This document shows positions 41,763-53,365 of a stretch of DNA of 64,000 nucleotides, piece by piece. Positions within the stretch are counted from its first letter, which is position 1; each line of letters begins with the position of its first letter. The DNA comes from a virus. Where the stretch lies: the IMG/VR virus record IMGVR_UViG_3300035232_000453. One strand, given 5' to 3'. The notes beneath the pieces are model-generated. The model saw only the letters and a program-made list of their open reading frames with translations, was not told the origin of the DNA and did not search any database. The translations under genes and the position numbers were made by a program.

Positions 41763-44606
41763 TTATGCAATCTTTCTTCTTAGATTATTTAACGTAGCTT
41801 CAGCAAGATCTTCCATTGCTGGTTCCTTTGCCGGAGCCTTGTTATTTTTGTCTAAATATTTTGCAATTTTGGCCAATAATACAACATGCTCTTTTGGCAA
41901 GCTATACATTTCGCCTGAAATTTGACTTAGTAAGTTAAATACTTCGTCATTTTTACTGTTCATTGCTAGAAAAGATAAGTGTGATACTAACTTAGCCATT
42001 GCACCATTACCACCTGAGTATTTAATTGGATCTTCATTATCAGGATGTTCTGGATCATTTGGATCAATGTTAAGTTTGAAATCTTCCTTGTTTTTAATCA
42101 TATCGTATAAACGATTCATATTACTTTTAGTTAGATCTGTCATACTGTCTCTCTCCTTTATAATACGGGCTACTGTTTCTAAGACTGAATCCATATTTGC
42201 AGTCTCAAATGTATTATACATGAACTTGTCAGTTAAGTCAACCGATTCTTTATCATTGTCTTCTACAATCGCAGTAGTAGGTGCTTGATAGTCGTTATAA
42301 CCTCTTGAAGTCTGTAGACTCTTAACTGTGTTCTTAAATTCTTTTAATTTTTGTTTAACTGCTTCAACAATGTTTACATTGCTTTCGTTAGTTAATTTGT
42401 TTGTACGCACATGTCTCAAAAACTGTGTACATTGTGCTACTTCTGTACATAAAGTGATAATTGATTCACCAATTGCATCATATGGCGTTCCGCCATTGCT
42501 TACATGGTTGGCCATAGCTTTAGCACCTTGTAAATACTTGTGTGGGAATCTAAATCTCTCTCCTGCACTGTTTTCAATAAACAATGCTTTGATGTTACGT
42601 GATCTGCTACCACGCACTTCTTCATTAACACCTTTTGTATGTTTAATAATAAGTTTAGTGTTTTCTGGTAATTGAATATAACTTGTTTTCATACTACCTG
42701 TTGCAGGTGTATAACCTTCGCCTAAATTATTTGGGCGTAATTTTGGTTTTACAGTTGGTTTTACAGTAGGTCTAATATTTTTAAATTTAGGATCTTGCAT
42801 GTTGAAAGTATCTCTCCATTTAGGATCTTTAATTTTAGCAATAGTTTCTGGATCCATAGCATCTGTACCATAGTTAGGATTACCAATATGATCATAACCG
42901 CCGATCATTGAATCTGGATTTTCTCTTGCACCAGTCTCTGGATTTGTGTATGTGCCATATCCATTCTGGTCGGCAATATCTTTTGCAATATTAAGAGGTA
43001 ATTTAGCTAAGTATCTGTTAATTTGTATTTGGTTTTCAGTGCCTAATACATCTTTAAATCCTTGCATTGCACCGTCTAATTCATTTTGACTCCAGCCAAT
43101 ACCATCTGCATGTCCAGTTCCACTTGCATCAAAAGGATCATCTACACCTCTTGTTGAACCTTTATGAATTAATGCAGCATTTGGGTCTGTAATATCTTTA
43201 GGGGACATATTCTGAGGATCTTTTGGACCAAAAGAGAAAGATCCCTTTCCTGGAGCTTCTGTAATACCAGATAGTTCTTTTAATCTGCTTACTTCTGATT
43301 CGTAGTATTCTTCATCTGGTTCGCCAGCTGCCATTTCTTTACAATCTGAACATCTACCATGTCCATCATTGTAGTCCATTAATTGAGCGCCACAGCAATT
43401 ACTTACTACGCCATCTTCCATTTCATCACCTGGTGAATATGATTCAGTTTCTGCTTCAAGTAATTCACCTGATGCTAAAATATCAATTGCATGTTTAATA
43501 TCTGTGTTTTCCATATCCACATGTGGTATTGCTTTTAATATAGCTTGCACTTGTGGCATACTCATAAATTCTTCATCATCTGTATCTATTTCATCTGTGA
43601 ATTCATAATATGAACTATCAGTCATTCTATAGTTATCTGCTTGAATTTCTTTAGCATGATCAACTACATGTGCCATAAATGCCTCTACTGAATTTCCGCC
43701 TTCATTTATCGATTCAACAAATACTTCTACCATGTCATCGCCATTACGCAATGCACCTTTTTTAACTTTTACGTTTTCTTTGCCGTATTTTTCAATTGCT
43801 TCTTCTGGAGACATACTAGTTTGTTTCCAACGCTTTTCTGATTCATTAGTTTGACGCTTTTCTGCCGCACACTCATCACATGTATCAATGTCGCCGTCTG
43901 TTTCGTCTTTAATCCATTCGCAATCTGCACAACCTTGTGTGCCTTCGTTTGGAGCTTCTGCAATACCAGATAGTTCTTTTAATCTGCGGACATCTTCATT
44001 TTTTGATTCCAATTGAGCAATCATGTCATCAAATGTCATATCGTCTTTTTTGTTCCTCAATGCGTCAACTACTATTGCTAATGTACGTTTTGCTAATTCA
44101 TCTCTGTCTCTAGTGGCTGTTGTCATTTCAATCCAAGTCCACTCATAAATCATTTGCATCACTTCGTCAACACTTTTGTCCCACATCTGCGTGTGTTCTT
44201 TCCAGAAGTCTGTAATCTCGTAATAGCCTGTAACTGCACTTGGTTGCATGTCTTTCATTGCCTTTTCAGTACGGTCGTCTTCTTTTACTACATCGTGTGC
44301 GAAGTCTTTTAATTCAATATTCTTATCAAATTTTCTAATGTTATATTCTGCCATAGCGTTGTGTCCTGCCTTTTTAATACTATTCAATAAATCGTTGTGT
44401 TCATTAAAATTGAAACTAGCTCCTGCTTGTACAACTAGTTCAACTCCATCTTCTTCTTCTCTAATAGTGATAAGAAAATCATTATCATATGCGTAAAATC
44501 TCGCTGATAATTCAGGATCTAATGTTTTATTTCCCATTGGATCAAACAATTTTATTTTAATGTTTGCACCCTTTAGAATGTTAAAAATCTCTTGTGATAG
44601 TTGCAT
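41763..44606 (-). CDS. large modular probable internal head protein (polyprotein-like), 947 aa
   Basis: start moved to MQLSQ (AAGGA RBS, late promoter 44627-44633); central string of short modules bounded by x-x-E. Confidence 0.75.
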   Translation of the reverse strand: MQLSQEIFNILKGANIKIKLFDPMGNKTLDPELSARFYAYDNDFLITIREEEDGVELVVQAGASFNFNEHNDLLNSIKKAGHNAMAEYNIRKFDKNIELKDFAHDVVKEDDRTEKAMKDMQPSAVTGYYEITDFWKEHTQMWDKSVDEVMQMIYEWTWIEMTTATRDRDELAKRTLAIVVDALRNKKDDMTFDDMIAQLESKNEDVRRLKELSGIAEAPNEGTQGCADCEWIKDETDGDIDTCDECAAEKRQTNESEKRWKQTSMSPEEAIEKYGKENVKVKKGALRNGDDMVEVFVESINEGGNSVEAFMAHVVDHAKEIQADNYRMTDSSYYEFTDEIDTDDEEFMSMPQVQAILKAIPHVDMENTDIKHAIDILASGELLEAETESYSPGDEMEDGVVSNCCGAQLMDYNDGHGRCSDCKEMAAGEPDEEYYESEVSRLKELSGITEAPGKGSFSFGPKDPQNMSPKDITDPNAALIHKGSTRGVDDPFDASGTGHADGIGWSQNELDGAMQGFKDVLGTENQIQINRYLAKLPLNIAKDIADQNGYGTYTNPETGARENPDSMIGGYDHIGNPNYGTDAMDPETIAKIKDPKWRDTFNMQDPKFKNIRPTVKPTVKPKLRPNNLGEGYTPATGSMKTSYIQLPENTKLIIKHTKGVNEEVRGSRSRNIKALFIENSAGERFRFPHKYLQGAKAMANHVSNGGTPYDAIGESIITLCTEVAQCTQFLRHVRTNKLTNESNVNIVEAVKQKLKEFKNTVKSLQTSRGYNDYQAPTTAIVEDNDKESVDLTDKFMYNTFETANMDSVLETVARIIKERDSMTDLTKSNMNRLYDMIKNKEDFKLNIDPNDPEHPDNEDPIKYSGGNGAMAKLVSHLSFLAMNSKNDEVFNLLSQISGEMYSLPKEHVVLLAKIAKYLDKNNKAPAKEPAMEDLAEATLNNLRRKIA
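43251..43288 (+). repeat. 38-bp direct repeat copy A (encodes RLKELSGITEAP)
   Basis: 37/38 identical to 43950-43987; offset 699 nt, in frame. Confidence 0.9.
43950..43987 (+). repeat. 38-bp direct repeat copy B (encodes RLKELSGIAEAP)
   Basis: 37/38 identical to 43251-43288. Confidence 0.9.
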
Positions 44607-44644: not shown

Positions 44645-46201
44645 TTATAATAGGCTAAACGGCATTGGTTCCATCCCGTCACCATCTTCAAAATCGTCGT
44701 TTAGGTAATCAAACGCATCTTCTTCATACTTAGATACCTCTAAACTCATACGTACAATTAAGTTAAGTGACATTACAAGATCATCATGCTCGCCGTCTTT
44801 AGCAGCATAACTATTGCCACGTGCAATAAATGTTTTTAATTCTCTTAATAGAGGTTTACTTGCTATTTCTAGTTTTTCTGTCTCAACCCAATATTTTAAC
44901 TTAGCACATGCATTTATTTTTGCTTTGTGTGTAGTTGTAAAGCCTCGTCTATAGCGTTTGGCATTTCCGTGTGAACGTGTTTCACTTAAAAATGTACCTG
45001 GAAAGTTTTCTTCGCCTGTTTCTTCAACAACAACTAGTGCTGCTTCGCCTAATGTGTTGTTTTCCATACTGTAATATATTTCACAATCACCATTTGTTTC
45101 ACTTTCTATAAACTGTGCTATTTCTCGCAAAATTTTTATCTGCCCTTGAACTGTTGTTCTATTATGCATCCATTCTGCTACTTGTTTCATTCCTGGCATA
45201 CTGTATACTTGTATAGCACTATTATCGCCACCTGTACCTAAACTAGGATCTAATCCTATCATATATAATTTACCCTTAGCAACTGGTGTGTACCAACGTA
45301 CTTGTCCTGATATAGCGTATGGATCCCGAGCTTCCATATTGCTTAGTTTAATACTATCAATAAGTGTTTCGTCAAACGCAATAAATTCACATTTGTGTTC
45401 ACGCCTGAATCTTTCTTCACCAATTTTACCTTGTTCAACATCTGCCCATTCTTGATCCCTATCTGGATGTACTTCCCATGTAGCTAGATAATGTGCAAAA
45501 CCATTAATACCTGTATTAGTTTCCATGCCGTGTTCGTCTTGGTTCTTATTAGCATCTCTCCAAATCTGTGCAAATTGGTCGTCATCCATATTTGGTGTTG
45601 ATGTGATAATACATTTACCACCTGTTGCTAATGTAGGAGAAAGTGAGGTCCAAAATTCTTTTGCTATGTTAGGTCTAACAAATGCAAACTCGTCTAAGTA
45701 TGCTAACGATATACTCAAACCACGTCCAGTATTTTCTGTTGTTGACTGTGCTACAATACGTGAGCCGTTATCAAATTCCAACGATCCTTTGTTATATGCA
45801 GTAACACCAGCTCTAATAAAGTCAGGCAGTGTTTCGTACGCAAAACGTATACGTTGCATAATTTCACTAGCACCACTATATTTGTGTGCTGCTATAAGAA
45901 TAGTTTGATCTGGATTAAACATTGCATACCATAACAAGTATCCTGCCGCACATGTACTTTTACCTGTTTGTCGTGCGAGCATACTAATACTATATCTATT
46001 ATTGTGATATGTATCTACTAGATCTTCTTGGAAATCATATAACTTAAATTTCATACGACCTTTAGTAGGATGCTGAATAAAACAGTGTTTCTTCATAAAG
46101 TGTTTAGGATCTTGTGAACATAGTGCAAGTTCTAATAACTGCTCTTCTGTGTACTTTTCTTTTTTATATGGGGTTTTAGTTAATTTTGTATCGACTGCCA
46201 T
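44645..46201 (-). CDS. gp17: terminase large subunit
   Basis: ARQTGKS, YLDEFAF, ITSTP, GLDPS, HDDLVM. Confidence 0.96.
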   Translation of the reverse strand: MAVDTKLTKTPYKKEKYTEEQLLELALCSQDPKHFMKKHCFIQHPTKGRMKFKLYDFQEDLVDTYHNNRYSISMLARQTGKSTCAAGYLLWYAMFNPDQTILIAAHKYSGASEIMQRIRFAYETLPDFIRAGVTAYNKGSLEFDNGSRIVAQSTTENTGRGLSISLAYLDEFAFVRPNIAKEFWTSLSPTLATGGKCIITSTPNMDDDQFAQIWRDANKNQDEHGMETNTGINGFAHYLATWEVHPDRDQEWADVEQGKIGEERFRREHKCEFIAFDETLIDSIKLSNMEARDPYAISGQVRWYTPVAKGKLYMIGLDPSLGTGGDNSAIQVYSMPGMKQVAEWMHNRTTVQGQIKILREIAQFIESETNGDCEIYYSMENNTLGEAALVVVEETGEENFPGTFLSETRSHGNAKRYRRGFTTTHKAKINACAKLKYWVETEKLEIASKPLLRELKTFIARGNSYAAKDGEHDDLVMSLNLIVRMSLEVSKYEEDAFDYLNDDFEDGDGMEPMPFSLL

Positions 46202-46896
46202 TAGTATCTCCCAAATGCCCAGTGGCGTTCTCTACACCACCAACATTCTCCACAATGTGTTATCATCCAACTAGGTTCATCTTTGTTGTGCCTTGCTTCT
46301 TGCTCGCAACTACGAGTAAACGGAAAAAGTGTTTCCATTAAATCAAAATGTTCATATAAGTATGCTGGCATGTGTTTATCTACTTTTATTAATGGCATCC
46401 ATCTTGTTATTCCATTTTCATATTCTTCTATTATTGGAACAGAATGCCCTGGATCTCTTTTAGCAAATCTTCCACCATCTTCTAAGCCTGGTGTATCTAA
46501 ACTAGGATTTTGCGTAGTACCGTGTATTGTGAAAGTAATATCATGTAACTTTTTTATACTTCTTTCAGCTTCATCTATTTCTGATCTAATTTGATCTGTA
46601 CTATAAAATGAATAGTGACTTTTAATTAATTTAGTTCCTGTGAGCTGGAGTACTTTATCGAGTACCTTGGTACTCCAGTTCGCATTGTACCAGCCCTTAA
46701 TAGGATTAGCTGATGTTATAACATGTAGTTCAGCTTCTGGTATATGTTTTTCACAGTATTGTATTAACATCCATAATAGTATAGCACTATCGGCTCCACC
46801 TGAGATGTTAATGCAAATCTTTTTATGTGGTTCTGGTACAGTAAAATGTATAGTTTGACCAAAACTATCAGTGTATGTTTCTATAGGTCTTTTCAT
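46201..46896 (-). CDS. QueC-like PP-loop ATPase
   Basis: ISGGADS PP-loop; TRSC...CGECWWC zinc site. Confidence 0.8.
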   Translation of the reverse strand: MKRPIETYTDSFGQTIHFTVPEPHKKICINISGGADSAILLWMLIQYCEKHIPEAELHVITSANPIKGWYNANWSTKVLDKVLQLTGTKLIKSHYSFYSTDQIRSEIDEAERSIKKLHDITFTIHGTTQNPSLDTPGLEDGGRFAKRDPGHSVPIIEEYENGITRWMPLIKVDKHMPAYLYEHFDLMETLFPFTRSCEQEARHNKDEPSWMITHCGECWWCRERHWAFGRY

Positions 46897-46901
46897 ATTA
46901 C

Positions 46902-46909
46902 TATTTATA
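46902..46909 (-). promoter_or_regulatory. late promoter TATAAATA 5 nt before the QueC-like ATG
   Basis: exact consensus, directly after a terminator. Confidence 0.7.
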
Positions 46910-46976: not shown

Positions 46977-47873
46977 TTATTTTTCTTTAGATTTCTTATA
47001 TGCTTCTTTAATATCTTCAACTTTATGTTCTTTTAAGCCTACTTTCATATCTTCTGCATCTAAGTATCTTTTTAAACTTAGGTTAACGCTTTGTGCAAAG
47101 TTCTCGTATGGCTCACCGTGTGATGTAGCTTCTTCTTCTGCTGCACCGTCTGGTGTGTTTGCCCATTCGTTTATCTTTTTATTAATTGCTTCTTCGCTTA
47201 AACCTGAATTCTTTAATAATGTAATTAATTGTGTTGTATCCATAGTTGGAGACTCCTCTAATTCTTCTTTGTCAGTTTCTGATTCTTCTGATTCTACTTT
47301 GTATTTTTTACCATCAACTTCAAATTCTTTTTTACCATTTTTCTTAGCATCAGCTAATGCACCTGAGAATTCATTGCCTTCGTTTGGAGCTTCTTCTAAT
47401 GAATCTGGAACGCCATTGCCGTTCTCATCTTTCCACCAGCTACCTGTTTCGTCATCACAATCATGTGAACAATCTGTAGTTGGTTGATGCATTGTGTCGC
47501 CACAGTCTTCGCATTTGTAGTCTGATGCGTTTAGTTGCTCTGCTTCACCAAAGTTTTCATCGTCATCACCATAATCGCCATCTTCACCTGGGTGATTCAT
47601 GTCGTTGTGTCTACGGAAGTCTGCTACGAAATCTTTAATTGTGTCGCCATCTAAATAACGAATTAATTCGCCAAGTACTGGATGATCTGAATCACATCCT
47701 AAATCATCGCATAAATCTAAAATTGGATCTGCAAATTCACCAACTGCTTCTCTTGTTGTAGTTGGTTCTTCAACTACTGGTACGTCTTTTAATTCTCTTT
47801 CTGCTGGAGCCTGGCTGTGAGCATCTGCTGTGCCGTGGCTAGCAAGTTTTAGTATTCTGTCTAAATCACTCAT
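46977..47873 (-). CDS. acidic modular probable internal head protein
   Basis: MSDLDRILKLA start, Cys module CEDC..CSHDC, EAPNEG, many x-x-E sites. Confidence 0.7.
   Translation of the reverse strand: MSDLDRILKLASHGTADAHSQAPAERELKDVPVVEEPTTTREAVGEFADPILDLCDDLGCDSDHPVLGELIRYLDGDTIKDFVADFRRHNDMNHPGEDGDYGDDDENFGEAEQLNASDYKCEDCGDTMHQPTTDCSHDCDDETGSWWKDENGNGVPDSLEEAPNEGNEFSGALADAKKNGKKEFEVDGKKYKVESEESETDKEELEESPTMDTTQLITLLKNSGLSEEAINKKINEWANTPDGAAEEEATSHGEPYENFAQSVNLSLKRYLDAEDMKVGLKEHKVEDIKEAYKKSKEK
47375..47394 (+). repeat. 20-bp exact match to 43940-43959 (encodes EAPNEG)
   Basis: TGCCTTCGTTTGGAGCTTCT at both sites. Confidence 0.85.
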
Positions 47874-50974: not shown

Positions 50975-53365
50975 TTAAAGTTCGCCAGTATTTACGATTC
51001 TAATTGGAATATAAATAAATTCTGCTGATTTTGTAGGCTCAATTGCTACATCAACATAAAATTCATTTGCATCAATTCTTGCAGGTGTATTGTTTGTTTC
51101 ATCACAAACTACTGCAAAGTCATAAACACCACGTTGTGCCATAATGTTTGCTAAGAATCCTTCAAATGTTGCTTTAGCATTTTCACGTGTTCCTACATCA
51201 TTTGGCTCAAACAAGTAAGGTCTTGCTATTACGGCAAAACGTTCTCTTAGATAGGCTGTAAGTCTTGCAACGTTAACTCTATCCAATGCTGATGCACTTG
51301 GATGTAAAGATTTTTGTCCAAATACTACAACACCCTCTGTAGGGAATTTTGCAATTGGATTCATCTTCTGCTCATACATTGCATCTCTAGAACCTTGTGT
51401 TAGTGCTAATGGTGTAAACTCATTTTCACTATTTAAGTAACCAACGTTAGTTGCATTTTGTACTTGTCCACGTGTTAAGCCTGCTGGTGCAAACCATTGA
51501 AAGCTCACGCTATCACTATATGCGAATGTATATAATGCAATGTGTGAAGCTGGAGCAACAACACTATCACCTGTTGAAGGGTTAGTTGTTAATGCATGTG
51601 GATAATAAACCGCACTATAAGTATTTGATGTTACTAAGCCATCTTCGCCATTTTCTGTTGCAGTTGTGCCTTGTTTCCAAGTAATTGCTTCAGTTTGATT
51701 TAAACGGAATGGAGCGTCAACAATAATAAATGCTGTTTCATCTCTGTCACTGTTAAGTGTTACCATTTCATCATATAACTCTGGATAACCTGGAGAAGCC
51801 ATTAAACGGAATTGAACTGTATCTTCACGTAGTTCCGAACCGCCTGCTGATGCCTGCATAGCTGTTGTAACAACTTTACGCTGAGCTAATCTACCAAACG
51901 AACCTTTGCCGCTTGCTTGATTGCCTGCTTTGTTACGCCATTTCCAATCTGTAGACAATGATGAATCATATTCTCTAACAGTATTACCTGAACGACACAT
52001 ATTAATACCAGTCATTCCAACTGGGTGTACTAGTGGGTTTGGAGAACTTGCTAAAAGAGTTGCTTCAAAGGCACCAGCTGCTGTATCATTAGCAGTAATG
52101 TCGCCAAATACAATACCTGCACTTGTGCTTTGATCTGTAGCATCTTTTGCCACCCATGCACTACCGTTTGAACGATAAATTACTGGGTAACCAGTTGCAT
52201 CTGTATCGATCCAGTAGTCGCCTGCCGAACCTACTGCTGGTGCAGAAGTTCCATATGCTACGTTAGTTACACGTTCCCATTTTTGTGTTCCACTGTCATC
52301 TTTTACTTCGTAAACTGCTAATTCGTTTACATCTGAATCGTGCCATAGTGTACCATTTGCTGGATTACCAGTTGGTTGTGTTGTACTTACTGATACTGGG
52401 TATGTTCCAGTTGAACCGAATCCATTCCAGCTTGTTCCATCATAACGTTTAAGCTCAATACTTGAACTTGCGTCAGCAAAGTCCAACCAAAGATCACCGT
52501 CTTGTAATGTACGAGCAGTTGCTGATGAACCGTCTTGGAATATATCTGATGTAGTTCCATCTGGTGCATTATCGTCTGCATATGTAATTGCTTGTCCAAC
52601 AAAAGAACCACTTGCAGTTGTGTATAAACTTGGTGCAAGTTTTAATCCACCTTTTGCTGTTGTTTTAATCCAAACATCGCCACTTGTTGGTGAACTTGGT
52701 GCTGAATAATGTGGAGCAAATGTAGTGTCGCCATCTACTAATGCTACCCATGCCGAACCGGAGTCCTTAAAGTAACTAATAGTTGTGTTTGATGTACCGT
52801 TAGTAATCAATACTAAGTAGTTGCCTGCTGTGCCTGCTGCCGTTGTAGGTGCGCCACTGTTAACAATTTCTACTTTAGTTGGAGTTTGTTCAGTCCACGA
52901 TGTACCATCGCTTTCAAAAATTCCCCAACTTGCACCTGTTGGGTTTACCCAATAAGTGTTATTTGCTGCTGCACCTGTTGGTGCTGATGAACTTGGTCTA
53001 AGTTCTGTTAGGTTAACATCAGCACGTACTACATACGCCGCCGAAGCTTGTCCTAAAAATGAATATGCTGCCAAAAGCCCGTATTCGTTAGTTTCATCAC
53101 CCTGTTGAACTGTAGCACCTTTTTTATTGAAATTAATGTTTCCAAAATATTGTGTAAGTTCTCTTTGTGAAGTAACTAGAATAGGTTTTTTTGATTGTGC
53201 AGACTTTGTGTATTTTGCAATGCCATCTGATTCAGTTAGGGTAGGATCTGCCTTATCCTCACCAGTAGCAATGAATAACATAGGAACAGTTCCGGCTCCT
53301 GCTGGGCCGTATACTGATTCGTCTGTTACTGAAACCTGTACACCAGGTGAAGTAAGATTTGCCAT
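50975..53365 (-). CDS. gp18: tail sheath protein with large beta-rich insertion
   Basis: SPGVQVSVTDES, WFAPAG..RG, DRVNVARL, FEPND, EFIYI; late promoter 53416-53422. Confidence 0.95.
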   Translation of the reverse strand: MANLTSPGVQVSVTDESVYGPAGAGTVPMLFIATGEDKADPTLTESDGIAKYTKSAQSKKPILVTSQRELTQYFGNINFNKKGATVQQGDETNEYGLLAAYSFLGQASAAYVVRADVNLTELRPSSSAPTGAAANNTYWVNPTGASWGIFESDGTSWTEQTPTKVEIVNSGAPTTAAGTAGNYLVLITNGTSNTTISYFKDSGSAWVALVDGDTTFAPHYSAPSSPTSGDVWIKTTAKGGLKLAPSLYTTASGSFVGQAITYADDNAPDGTTSDIFQDGSSATARTLQDGDLWLDFADASSSIELKRYDGTSWNGFGSTGTYPVSVSTTQPTGNPANGTLWHDSDVNELAVYEVKDDSGTQKWERVTNVAYGTSAPAVGSAGDYWIDTDATGYPVIYRSNGSAWVAKDATDQSTSAGIVFGDITANDTAAGAFEATLLASSPNPLVHPVGMTGINMCRSGNTVREYDSSLSTDWKWRNKAGNQASGKGSFGRLAQRKVVTTAMQASAGGSELREDTVQFRLMASPGYPELYDEMVTLNSDRDETAFIIVDAPFRLNQTEAITWKQGTTATENGEDGLVTSNTYSAVYYPHALTTNPSTGDSVVAPASHIALYTFAYSDSVSFQWFAPAGLTRGQVQNATNVGYLNSENEFTPLALTQGSRDAMYEQKMNPIAKFPTEGVVVFGQKSLHPSASALDRVNVARLTAYLRERFAVIARPYLFEPNDVGTRENAKATFEGFLANIMAQRGVYDFAVVCDETNNTPARIDANEFYVDVAIEPTKSAEFIYIPIRIVNTGEL

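Follow-up and report, generated by a model that had tools for sequence, protein, structure and literature searches.

A scaffold-tail-like leader and in-frame putative cargo cassettes in a virion protein gene of T4-related jumbo phages

In phage T4, proteins tagged with a capsid targeting sequence (CTS) stay in the head and are delivered, and the internal proteins of T-even phages differ between related phages but keep CTS-like sequences (PMC9026906). The T4 proteins IPI, IPII, IPIII, and Alt, with their CTS, form the closest known system to the one described here, and the T-even internal-protein loci are polymorphic. Here, we analyze a gene (the carrier gene; Table 1) of IMG/VR virus record IMGVR_UViG_3300035232_000453, from a stretch of 64,000 nucleotides (nt) that we call the window. 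Its product holds, between two conserved end domains, small modules (the putative cargo) and two copies of a short leader peptide. As in the CTS system, a short peptide (here a putative tag) stands on otherwise unrelated proteins and is followed by an (L/I)-x-E site, the cargo varies between close relatives while the leader is kept (as the comparison below confirms), and a Peptidase_S77 protease is encoded in a close relative. There are also clear differences. The leader, RRLKELSGI, is unrelated in sequence to the T4 CTS and is internal in the carrier; elsewhere it is found at N-terminal, internal, and C-terminal positions. It copies the C-terminal tail of the scaffold, a tail that T4 gp22 lacks. 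Finally, the putative cargo is acidic and tiny and is encoded in frame within a conserved structural gene and not in separate genes.

Scaffolding proteins offer a second comparison. The C-terminal tails of the P22 gp8 and herpesvirus pre-VP22a scaffolds bind the coat protein, and pre-VP22a is cut at the M site. As here, a conserved C-terminal scaffold peptide is the expected capsid contact; for the present tail, the capsid protein is a candidate partner with weak support from a docking prediction. Fusing cargo to the C-terminal domain of the scaffold reportedly loads that cargo into engineered P22 particles; by analogy, the same fusion of scaffold tail to cargo seems to have been done by nature at this locus. 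With the cargo-loading peptides of encapsulins, a short terminal peptide likewise directs diverse cargo into an HK97-fold shell; the motif is different, however, and the present system belongs to a DNA-packaging phage with a maturation protease, and the likeness is an analogy only. Polyvalent proteins contain many unrelated variable modules per polypeptide; processing, and transfer together with the DNA, have been proposed for them (Iyer et al. 2017, PMC5512222). The carrier is, similarly, one polypeptide with many unrelated modules that vary between relatives; unlike polyvalent proteins, it has no conflict domains (methylases, ArdC, peptidases, ADP-ribosyltransferases) detectable by Pfam, and PHROGs gives none for the modules. 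PA5oct gp278 (PHROG 13484) has homologous N- and C-terminal cores and the same gene order, and differs from the carrier in having neither the loop insert nor the leader.

The mosaic nature of the carrier appears from a comparison with 183 near-length homologues (~70 of them close relatives) and 80 IMG/VR loci. Among the close relatives, residues 1-115 and 630-947 are 85-98% identical, the total length ranges from 546 to 1118 amino acids (aa), and the proteins differ from each other by whole modules; those with end domains 92-98% identical to the carrier's span 546-940 aa. The 759-aa forms lack residues 439-629 (leader copy 2 with the module E block), the 590-aa forms are without modules A and C, and forms of 882-940 aa have an additional 123-aa module directly after the first RLKELSGI. 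The 546-aa form contains a Cys module that, in the window, belongs to the neighbouring gene (46977-47873). Module A is missing from relatives of 546-671 aa and occurs at other positions in P0072-77, P0098, and P0121 (64-74% identity); module B2 is found in an unrelated carrier family at 80-92% identity (P0078, P0084, P0090-95, P0100, P0114, P0118, P0120), and module D, at 53-65% identity, in many carriers.

More distant relatives, with 46-78% identity in the C-terminal domain, are ~425 aa long and have the two domains fused as ..PKDFAHETVKE-GYSRATGSLKTSY.., with RLKELSGI absent; the loop of this minimal form reads ..KDFAHxxVKE-GYxxATGSxKTSY... In a group of ~490 aa, an insert of 60 aa occupies this junction, with the junction duplicated on its flanks. 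Across the 80 loci, forms of 590-1122 aa always contain one or two leaders and complete forms of ~425-490 aa contain none. By this comparison, the two-domain form is the ancestral one and the centre a lineage-specific insertion at one site. In the lineage of the window, the loop holds a cassette array, which opens with the leader, (E)E(V/I)RRLKELSGIxE, and continues with the small acidic modules of putative cargo. A literature search found no published description of such an arrangement.

A preliminary description, made from the window without database searches, had read this open reading frame as a string of short peptide units with an in-frame repeat, and the frame, the units listed, and the repeat are all present. 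The variable centre that it placed at ~42720-44280 agrees with the limits found independently from the relatives (residues 110-630). Its expectation that orthologs would keep their ends and vary in the module content of the centre holds as well, the orthologs not being colinear. So does the variation that it foresaw at the linker repeats: breakpoints among relatives concentrate at the RLKELSGI linker and at the junction of the C-terminal domain, and linker DNA is shared exactly between different genes. Where the sequences can be aligned, the ratio of nonsynonymous to synonymous substitution rates (dN/dS) is 0-0.35 for the modules and 0.13-0.23 for the core domains, and the synonymous rate dS varies several-fold between adjacent segments of one pair, as is expected of recombinant mosaics. 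The modules are under purifying selection and are swapped between carriers.

The leader repeat, noticed already in the preliminary description as RLKELSGIxEAP occurring twice in frame, brackets the CADC..CDEC, KRWKQTS..VEVFVE, acidic helical, and SNCCGA..CSDC units. Its two 46-nt copies (43251-43296 and 43950-43995) are identical at 42/46 nt and lie 699 nt (233 codons) apart; within the stretch coding for RLKELSGIxEAP, 35 of 36 nt are identical, silent positions all included. The identity at the DNA level extends to other genes: 20 nt beside leader copy 1 (43940-43959; EAPNEG) recur unchanged at 47375-47394 in the neighbouring 298-aa gene, and the exact 23-nt sequence coding for RLKELSGI is present in 13 IMG/VR loci. 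Direct repeats of the junction flank the inserted cassettes in P0056 and in the ~490-aa forms. At the protein level, free-standing ORFs, MLNEEVRRLKELSGIKE.. (189 aa) and MDIEEIRRLKELSGITE.. (129-245 aa), have the leader five to six residues behind their first residue, and their cargo is the same as in internal cassettes of P0056 and P0022. A 409-aa array without core domains (L023:4832-6058) has the leader three times, with three units, and a 472-aa relative of the neighbouring gene has an internal RLKELSGI; the EEYYESEVSRLKELSGI junction of leader copy 2 recurs in that gene's relative and in the coreless arrays. Some distant homologues have the motif at the C-terminus (..ERMKELAGLR, ..DRLKELAGIKK), and P0088, P0096, P0103, P0104, P0232, and P0264 end in it. 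A pattern scan of all fetched loci and of the window finds the motif limited to these gene classes and to scaffolds.

The link to scaffolds comes from the head module of the close relative G002, which consists of a portal, an acidic 303-aa protein, a Peptidase_S77 protease, a 365-aa coiled-coil scaffold, and a Gp23-family capsid protein (scaffold and capsid protein being at L098 9373-10470 and 8197-9360, respectively). The G002 scaffold ends in ..NLKKLAGIN-COOH (AEIINLKKLAGIN), and G003 and G005 have an equal tail. Five scaffolds of cultured phages end in (L/I)-x-(K/R/V)-(L/I)-(A/S)-G-I plus one to three residues: ELRRLAGIK in PA5oct, DRLTKIAGIRK in Vibrio phage 2.275.O, DLKRLAGIKK in Atu_ph07, ELDVLSGINKK in the Rak2-like Ecwhy_1, and ELRRLAGIEK in Phosso. 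The core common to the leader and to the scaffold tail of the phage group is (L/I)-(K/R)-x-(L/I)-(A/S)-G-I; these comparisons show the leader to be a copy of the terminal peptide of the scaffold. The homologue of the carrier in Phosso has an extra 550 residues behind the core and itself ends in ..ARLRKLAGI-COOH; those of PA5oct (496 aa) and of the Vibrio phage (445 aa) have neither loop insert nor leader. The LAGI tail is absent from the termini of T4 gp22, gp67, gp68, and gp21. By analogy with the P22 and herpesvirus scaffolds, the tail would be the contact of the scaffold with the shell or the core. In G002, a 715-aa protein encoded upstream of the portal (L098 13988-16135) ends in ..QYNLAAGLHQ, possibly a degenerate tail of the scaffold type. 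The G002 scaffold also has a conserved LTE↓S about 33 residues ahead of the tail (arrows mark known or putative cuts), a site that could release the tail after assembly.

The T4 prohead protease gp21 cuts after (I/L)xE, and the protease gene of G002 belongs to the same family (Peptidase_S77, E = 5e-26). Where T4 gp23 has its known cut, FLTE↓AEIGG, the aligned stretch of the G002 capsid protein is YLSE↓SANAG. Candidate gp21-type sites in the carrier are LKE, IAE, ITE, VKE, and LGE. According to the preliminary description, each unit ends at x-x-E; taken alone, that pattern is weak because Glu makes up 10% of the centre. What stands is the narrower (L/I/V/M)-x-E, which falls within one residue of five of the seven junctions defined by comparison (random placement would give this with a probability of about 2e-5, for junctions not chosen blind and with two of the five matches lying in the repeated leader). 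The leader itself contains L-K-E, and in nearly all contexts a Glu follows it after two or three residues. In most of the divergent members, the C-terminal domain starts behind a Glu that precedes (G/S/A)-(Y/F/hydrophobic), usually with I, V, L, or M two residues ahead of the Glu. The site pattern fits T4-type processing, and cutting of the carrier by the head protease is plausible. Throughout the marine clade, the family keeps a C-terminus of the form (L/I)-x-E-(S/A)-x-L-x-x-L-R-R-K-I-A-COOH (window 41766-41810, residues 933-947). Here, a putative T4-type cut site precedes a tail that is basic and amphipathic and loosely like that of the scaffold; this tail may be the core protein's own docking peptide.

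Taken together, we propose that the leader, derived from the scaffold tail, is a head-targeting tag, that the cassettes are shuffled by recombination in the leader DNA, and that the cargo is probably released by the protease; we give this whole explanation a probability of roughly one half. The leader would dock the cargo on the inner side of the prohead during assembly, a role expected of the scaffold tail too, and recombination between the near-identical leader DNA sequences would lead to cassettes being gained, lost, or moved. A T4-type prohead protease would then cut at (L/I/V)-x-E on either side of the leaders and at the conserved xxE↓(G/S)-(Y/F) site before the C-terminal domain, and both this domain, in its mature form, and the pieces of cargo would be released. 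The predicted packaging of the carrier in the head is indirectly supported by the annotation of PA5oct gp278, the note "ESI-MS/MS" of which means that it was detected in virions by mass spectrometry (MS), and by the copy of the scaffold tail. The origin of the tag in a scaffold tail and the in-frame cassette format are new; T4-style capsid targeting with protease processing is of a known kind.

Several observations weigh against this explanation. The minimal forms and PA5oct gp278 have no leader, and yet gp278 is in virions; the core domains therefore need no leader for incorporation. The window does not reach the head genes of its phage, and the protease and the scaffold were read from relatives, the closest being G002 (97% identity in the C-terminal domain). 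T4 gp22 is without a LAGI-type tail, and the capsid protein is a candidate partner of the tail in this group. A docking prediction of the capsid protein (P0269) with residues 186-240 of the carrier gave a score of 0.50 (best control 0.01), which lends the contact weak support, since at scores this low a pass is wrong more often than it is right. Of 80 solved complexes, 58 passed the mark, as did two of 110 mismatched pairs, with scores of 0.60 or under in seven of the 80 solved complexes and in both passing mismatches. The docking runs share at least 62% of their contacts, the partner has a predicted local distance difference test (pLDDT) of at least 56, and a homologue search with the capsid protein gave only sequences 93-100% identical, with no added alignment depth. 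As to the predicted cuts, (L/I/V)-x-E is found inside the folded core domains too, and the PA5oct papers give no per-protein peptide coverage. Some insertions and deletions fall within modules and not at leaders (P0037). Lastly, the units of the centre other than residues 259-297 and a weakly predicted ribbon are modelled by AlphaFold2 as low-confidence helices or disorder.

The last point leads to another explanation, in which the N-terminal domain and the cassettes together are either a long propeptide with several cuts or an acidic filler or auxiliary scaffold, loaded into the prohead, chopped there, and mostly expelled or inert, with a role in assembly and not in the next host. The centre (~520 residues) is indeed strongly acidic (isoelectric point 4.46; 108 Asp+Glu vs. 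57 Lys+Arg) besides being mostly of low confidence or disordered, and T4 gp67 and the 303-aa protein beside the G002 protease are similarly acidic. Phage SPN3US has N-terminal propeptides of 111-254 residues, most of which exit the head after being cut at multiple sites (PMC10052503), a precedent that also counts against the retention of cargo pieces in the explanation that we prefer. The modules match no enzyme or known inhibitor family in Pfam or PHROGs. On the other hand, modules turn over fast among phages with core domains over 92% identical and yet each is under purifying selection, a pattern not expected of a simple filler. Two modules are, moreover, predicted to fold (one of them weakly), and the minimal forms do without the whole cassette region. 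We hold the propeptide or filler, the main rival of our explanation, to be somewhat unlikely.

Alternatively, the loop could be an insertion-tolerant linker, with the modules uncut and covalently attached and the leader kept for folding or spacing. A single flexible loop takes all the insertions, cleavage of the carrier is a prediction, and in PA5oct the core domains alone are enough for incorporation into the virion. A role as spacer leaves unexplained, however, that the leader equals the scaffold tail and is found also at the extreme N-terminus of free-standing proteins and at the extreme C-terminus of others; nor does it account for the Glu two to three residues after the leader. Such an uncut linker appears quite unlikely. 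That the cassettes are selfish in-frame DNA elements, with the 46-nt leader-coding sequence as recombination site and the peptides as functionless passengers, would suit the exact identity of leader and junction DNA over 20-23 nt between different genes and contigs and the direct repeats of the junction around inserted cassettes (P0056, ~490-aa forms), but is very improbable given module dN/dS values well below 1 and a motif that distant phages keep at the peptide level and that recurs in the scaffold protein.

Table 1. Features of the carrier gene and of its neighbour (window positions; residues of the carrier protein)
Feature	Coordinates	Strand	Remarks
Carrier gene	41763..44606	minus	947 aa; PA5oct gp278 / PHROG 13484 virion-protein family; between TerL and gp32-like SSB
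N-terminal core domain, residues 1-109	44280..44606	minus	alpha/beta, ends ..KDFAHDVVKE; pLDDT about 90; 85-97% identical in relatives; present in distant members
Module A, residues 110-205	43992..44279	minus	acidic helical unit; dN/dS 0-0.12
Leader copy 1, residues 205-219	43950..43995	minus	46-nt repeat encoding ..DVRRLKELSGIAEAP
Module B1, residues 218-249	43860..43955	minus	CADC..CDEC four-Cys unit; pLDDT below 50; deleted in P0037
Module B2, residues 250-302	43701..43859	minus	KRWKQTS..VEVFVESINE small beta/alpha domain; pLDDT 74-83
Module C, residues 303-357	43536..43700	minus	acidic helical unit; absent in P0033-37; dN/dS 0.07-0.21
Module D, residues 358-438	43293..43535	minus	SNCCGA..CSDC ribbon, ends EEYYESE; three strands, pLDDT 62-69
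Leader copy 2, residues 438-452	43251..43296	minus	46-nt repeat encoding ..EVSRLKELSGITEAP
Module E and Lys/Pro linker, residues 451-630	42717..43256	minus	Gly/Pro/Asp-rich, ends ..NNLGE; mostly pLDDT below 50
C-terminal core domain, residues 631-947	41766..42716	minus	starts GYTPATGSMKTSY; RGSRSRNI; ends LAE↓ATLNNLRRKIA; pLDDT 80-92
Second carrier gene, 298 aa	46977..47873	minus	N-terminal MSDLDRILKLASHG leader variant, Cys module, shared EAPNEG junction

In the AlphaFold2 model of the carrier, only the two end domains and residues 259-297 (pLDDT 74-83) have confident folds, and the second Cys ribbon (residues 399-430, 62-69) has a weakly predicted one. The minimal homologue P0124 is predicted with a mean pLDDT of 91.6 and a predicted template modeling score of 0.73, the only dip (67) being the loop at the junction. 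A sequence search of solved structures gave nothing significant, Foldseek found no match at E<=0.001 for either the full model or the minimal homologue, and ESM Atlas with the minimal homologue gave no usable match. The best VIA-align hit (Z 6.5; KA1-like, N-terminal domain only; root-mean-square deviation 2.7 over 74 residues) is within the range of common arrangements, and no portal is among the matches of the fold searches. This lack of a convincing structural match for the core fold in the predicted models does not prove a new fold. In the C-terminal core, S122, H135, R147, E162, H180, and D189 (P0124 numbering) are invariant or nearly so; together with RGSRSRNI, these residues hint at a catalytic or nucleic-acid-binding site. 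Pfam and PHROGs searches with each module, the free-standing cargo genes, and the neighbouring gene returned only sub-threshold noise; as the modules match no known family in these separate searches, the effector or anti-defence role proposed for them in the preliminary description finds no support here, and neither does its proposal that the pieces are kept in the head for injection.

The carrier gene is a conserved virion protein gene of T4-related jumbo phages. It starts with ATG, preceded by AAGGAA, and the protein with MQLSQEIF... PHROG 13484, "virion structural protein", is the sole family match of the whole protein (E = 6e-21), no Pfam family reaching its cut-off with the 947-aa sequence, and a tblastn comparison with PA5oct gives 36% identity (E about 1e-31). 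The C-terminal core, a family of 1424 clusters at E<=1e-3, shares with the gp278-like family the motifs RGSRSRNI, GERF, and GGxPYD, in nearly invariant columns, and both the N-terminal alpha/beta core and the position between TerL and SSB are those of that family. The order TerL-X-SSB-UvsX is found also in PA5oct, Sinorhizobium phage Phosso, and Vibrio phage 2.275.O, where X has 496, 976, and 445 aa, respectively. A portal, suggested by the place after TerL, was considered and rejected because portals are separate genes (a 557-aa portal in G002 and gp149 in PA5oct). Neither is the carrier a gp22-like scaffold: in relatives, the true scaffold is a separate 365-aa gene, and only the tail motif is common.

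The window, from a T4-related jumbo phage, has a GC content of 33-39% and is thus AT-rich, and the minus strand holds almost all genes up to 60.4 kb. Around the carrier gene, the order on this strand is tail sheath (50975-53365), tail tube and a tube-like gene, head closure, a 164-aa virion protein, the 298-aa gene, a QueC-like gene, TerL (44645-46201), the carrier gene, the gp32-like single-stranded DNA-binding protein (SSB), and UvsX. The QueC-like PP-loop gene (46201-46909) sits between the two modular genes and TerL, and its start is preceded, at a distance of 6 nt, by a TATAAATA box (46902-46909); TerL and the carrier gene follow, leaving no space for a further promoter. Over the window, the T4 late-promoter sequence TATAAATA is not enriched (nine matches vs. 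11.8 expected). The phages form a very abundant, conserved marine jumbo-phage lineage: the capsid protein of the group is 93-100% identical over hundreds of marine contigs (including Tara records), and the carrier core is only 46-97% identical.

The neighbouring 298-aa gene is a second carrier. Its start, MSDLDRILKLASHG, resembles the scaffold tail of the Vibrio phage, DLDRLTKIAGIRK, and its relatives reach 472-600 aa through added modules and RLKELSGI. A third family of carriers, found outside the window (P0078, P0084, P0090, P0100, P0114, P0118), has versions of modules B2 and D that are up to 92% identical and joins its modules by ESVNE↓G, a junction that resembles ESINEG at residues 297-303 of the carrier. 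The C-terminal half of these proteins is Gly/Ala-rich and membrane-like, and because of this they may be a set of ejection proteins.

With the leader read as a head-targeting tag, the locus may be a natural plug-in system by which cargo enters phage heads. A further step, which we consider unlikely as it stands, would make the leader a portable address label: any small protein gaining a copy of the scaffold tail would be loaded, trimmed by the protease, and ejected with the DNA, and the arrays would be a fast-evolving kit, driven by recombination, of early-acting (e.g., counter-defence) mini-proteins. As a head-targeting tag, the leader would add to the T4 CTS a second natural code for addressing capsids, one derived from the scaffold itself. 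It would also show new internal or ejected phage proteins evolving through cassette exchange at a conserved tag, and would offer a ready tool to load proteins into large capsids. The leader motif gives a simple sequence rule to find head cargo in uncultured jumbo phages, and the idea can be tested directly in cultured relatives that share the scaffold tail (PA5oct, Phosso, Atu_ph07, and Vibrio phage 2.275.O).

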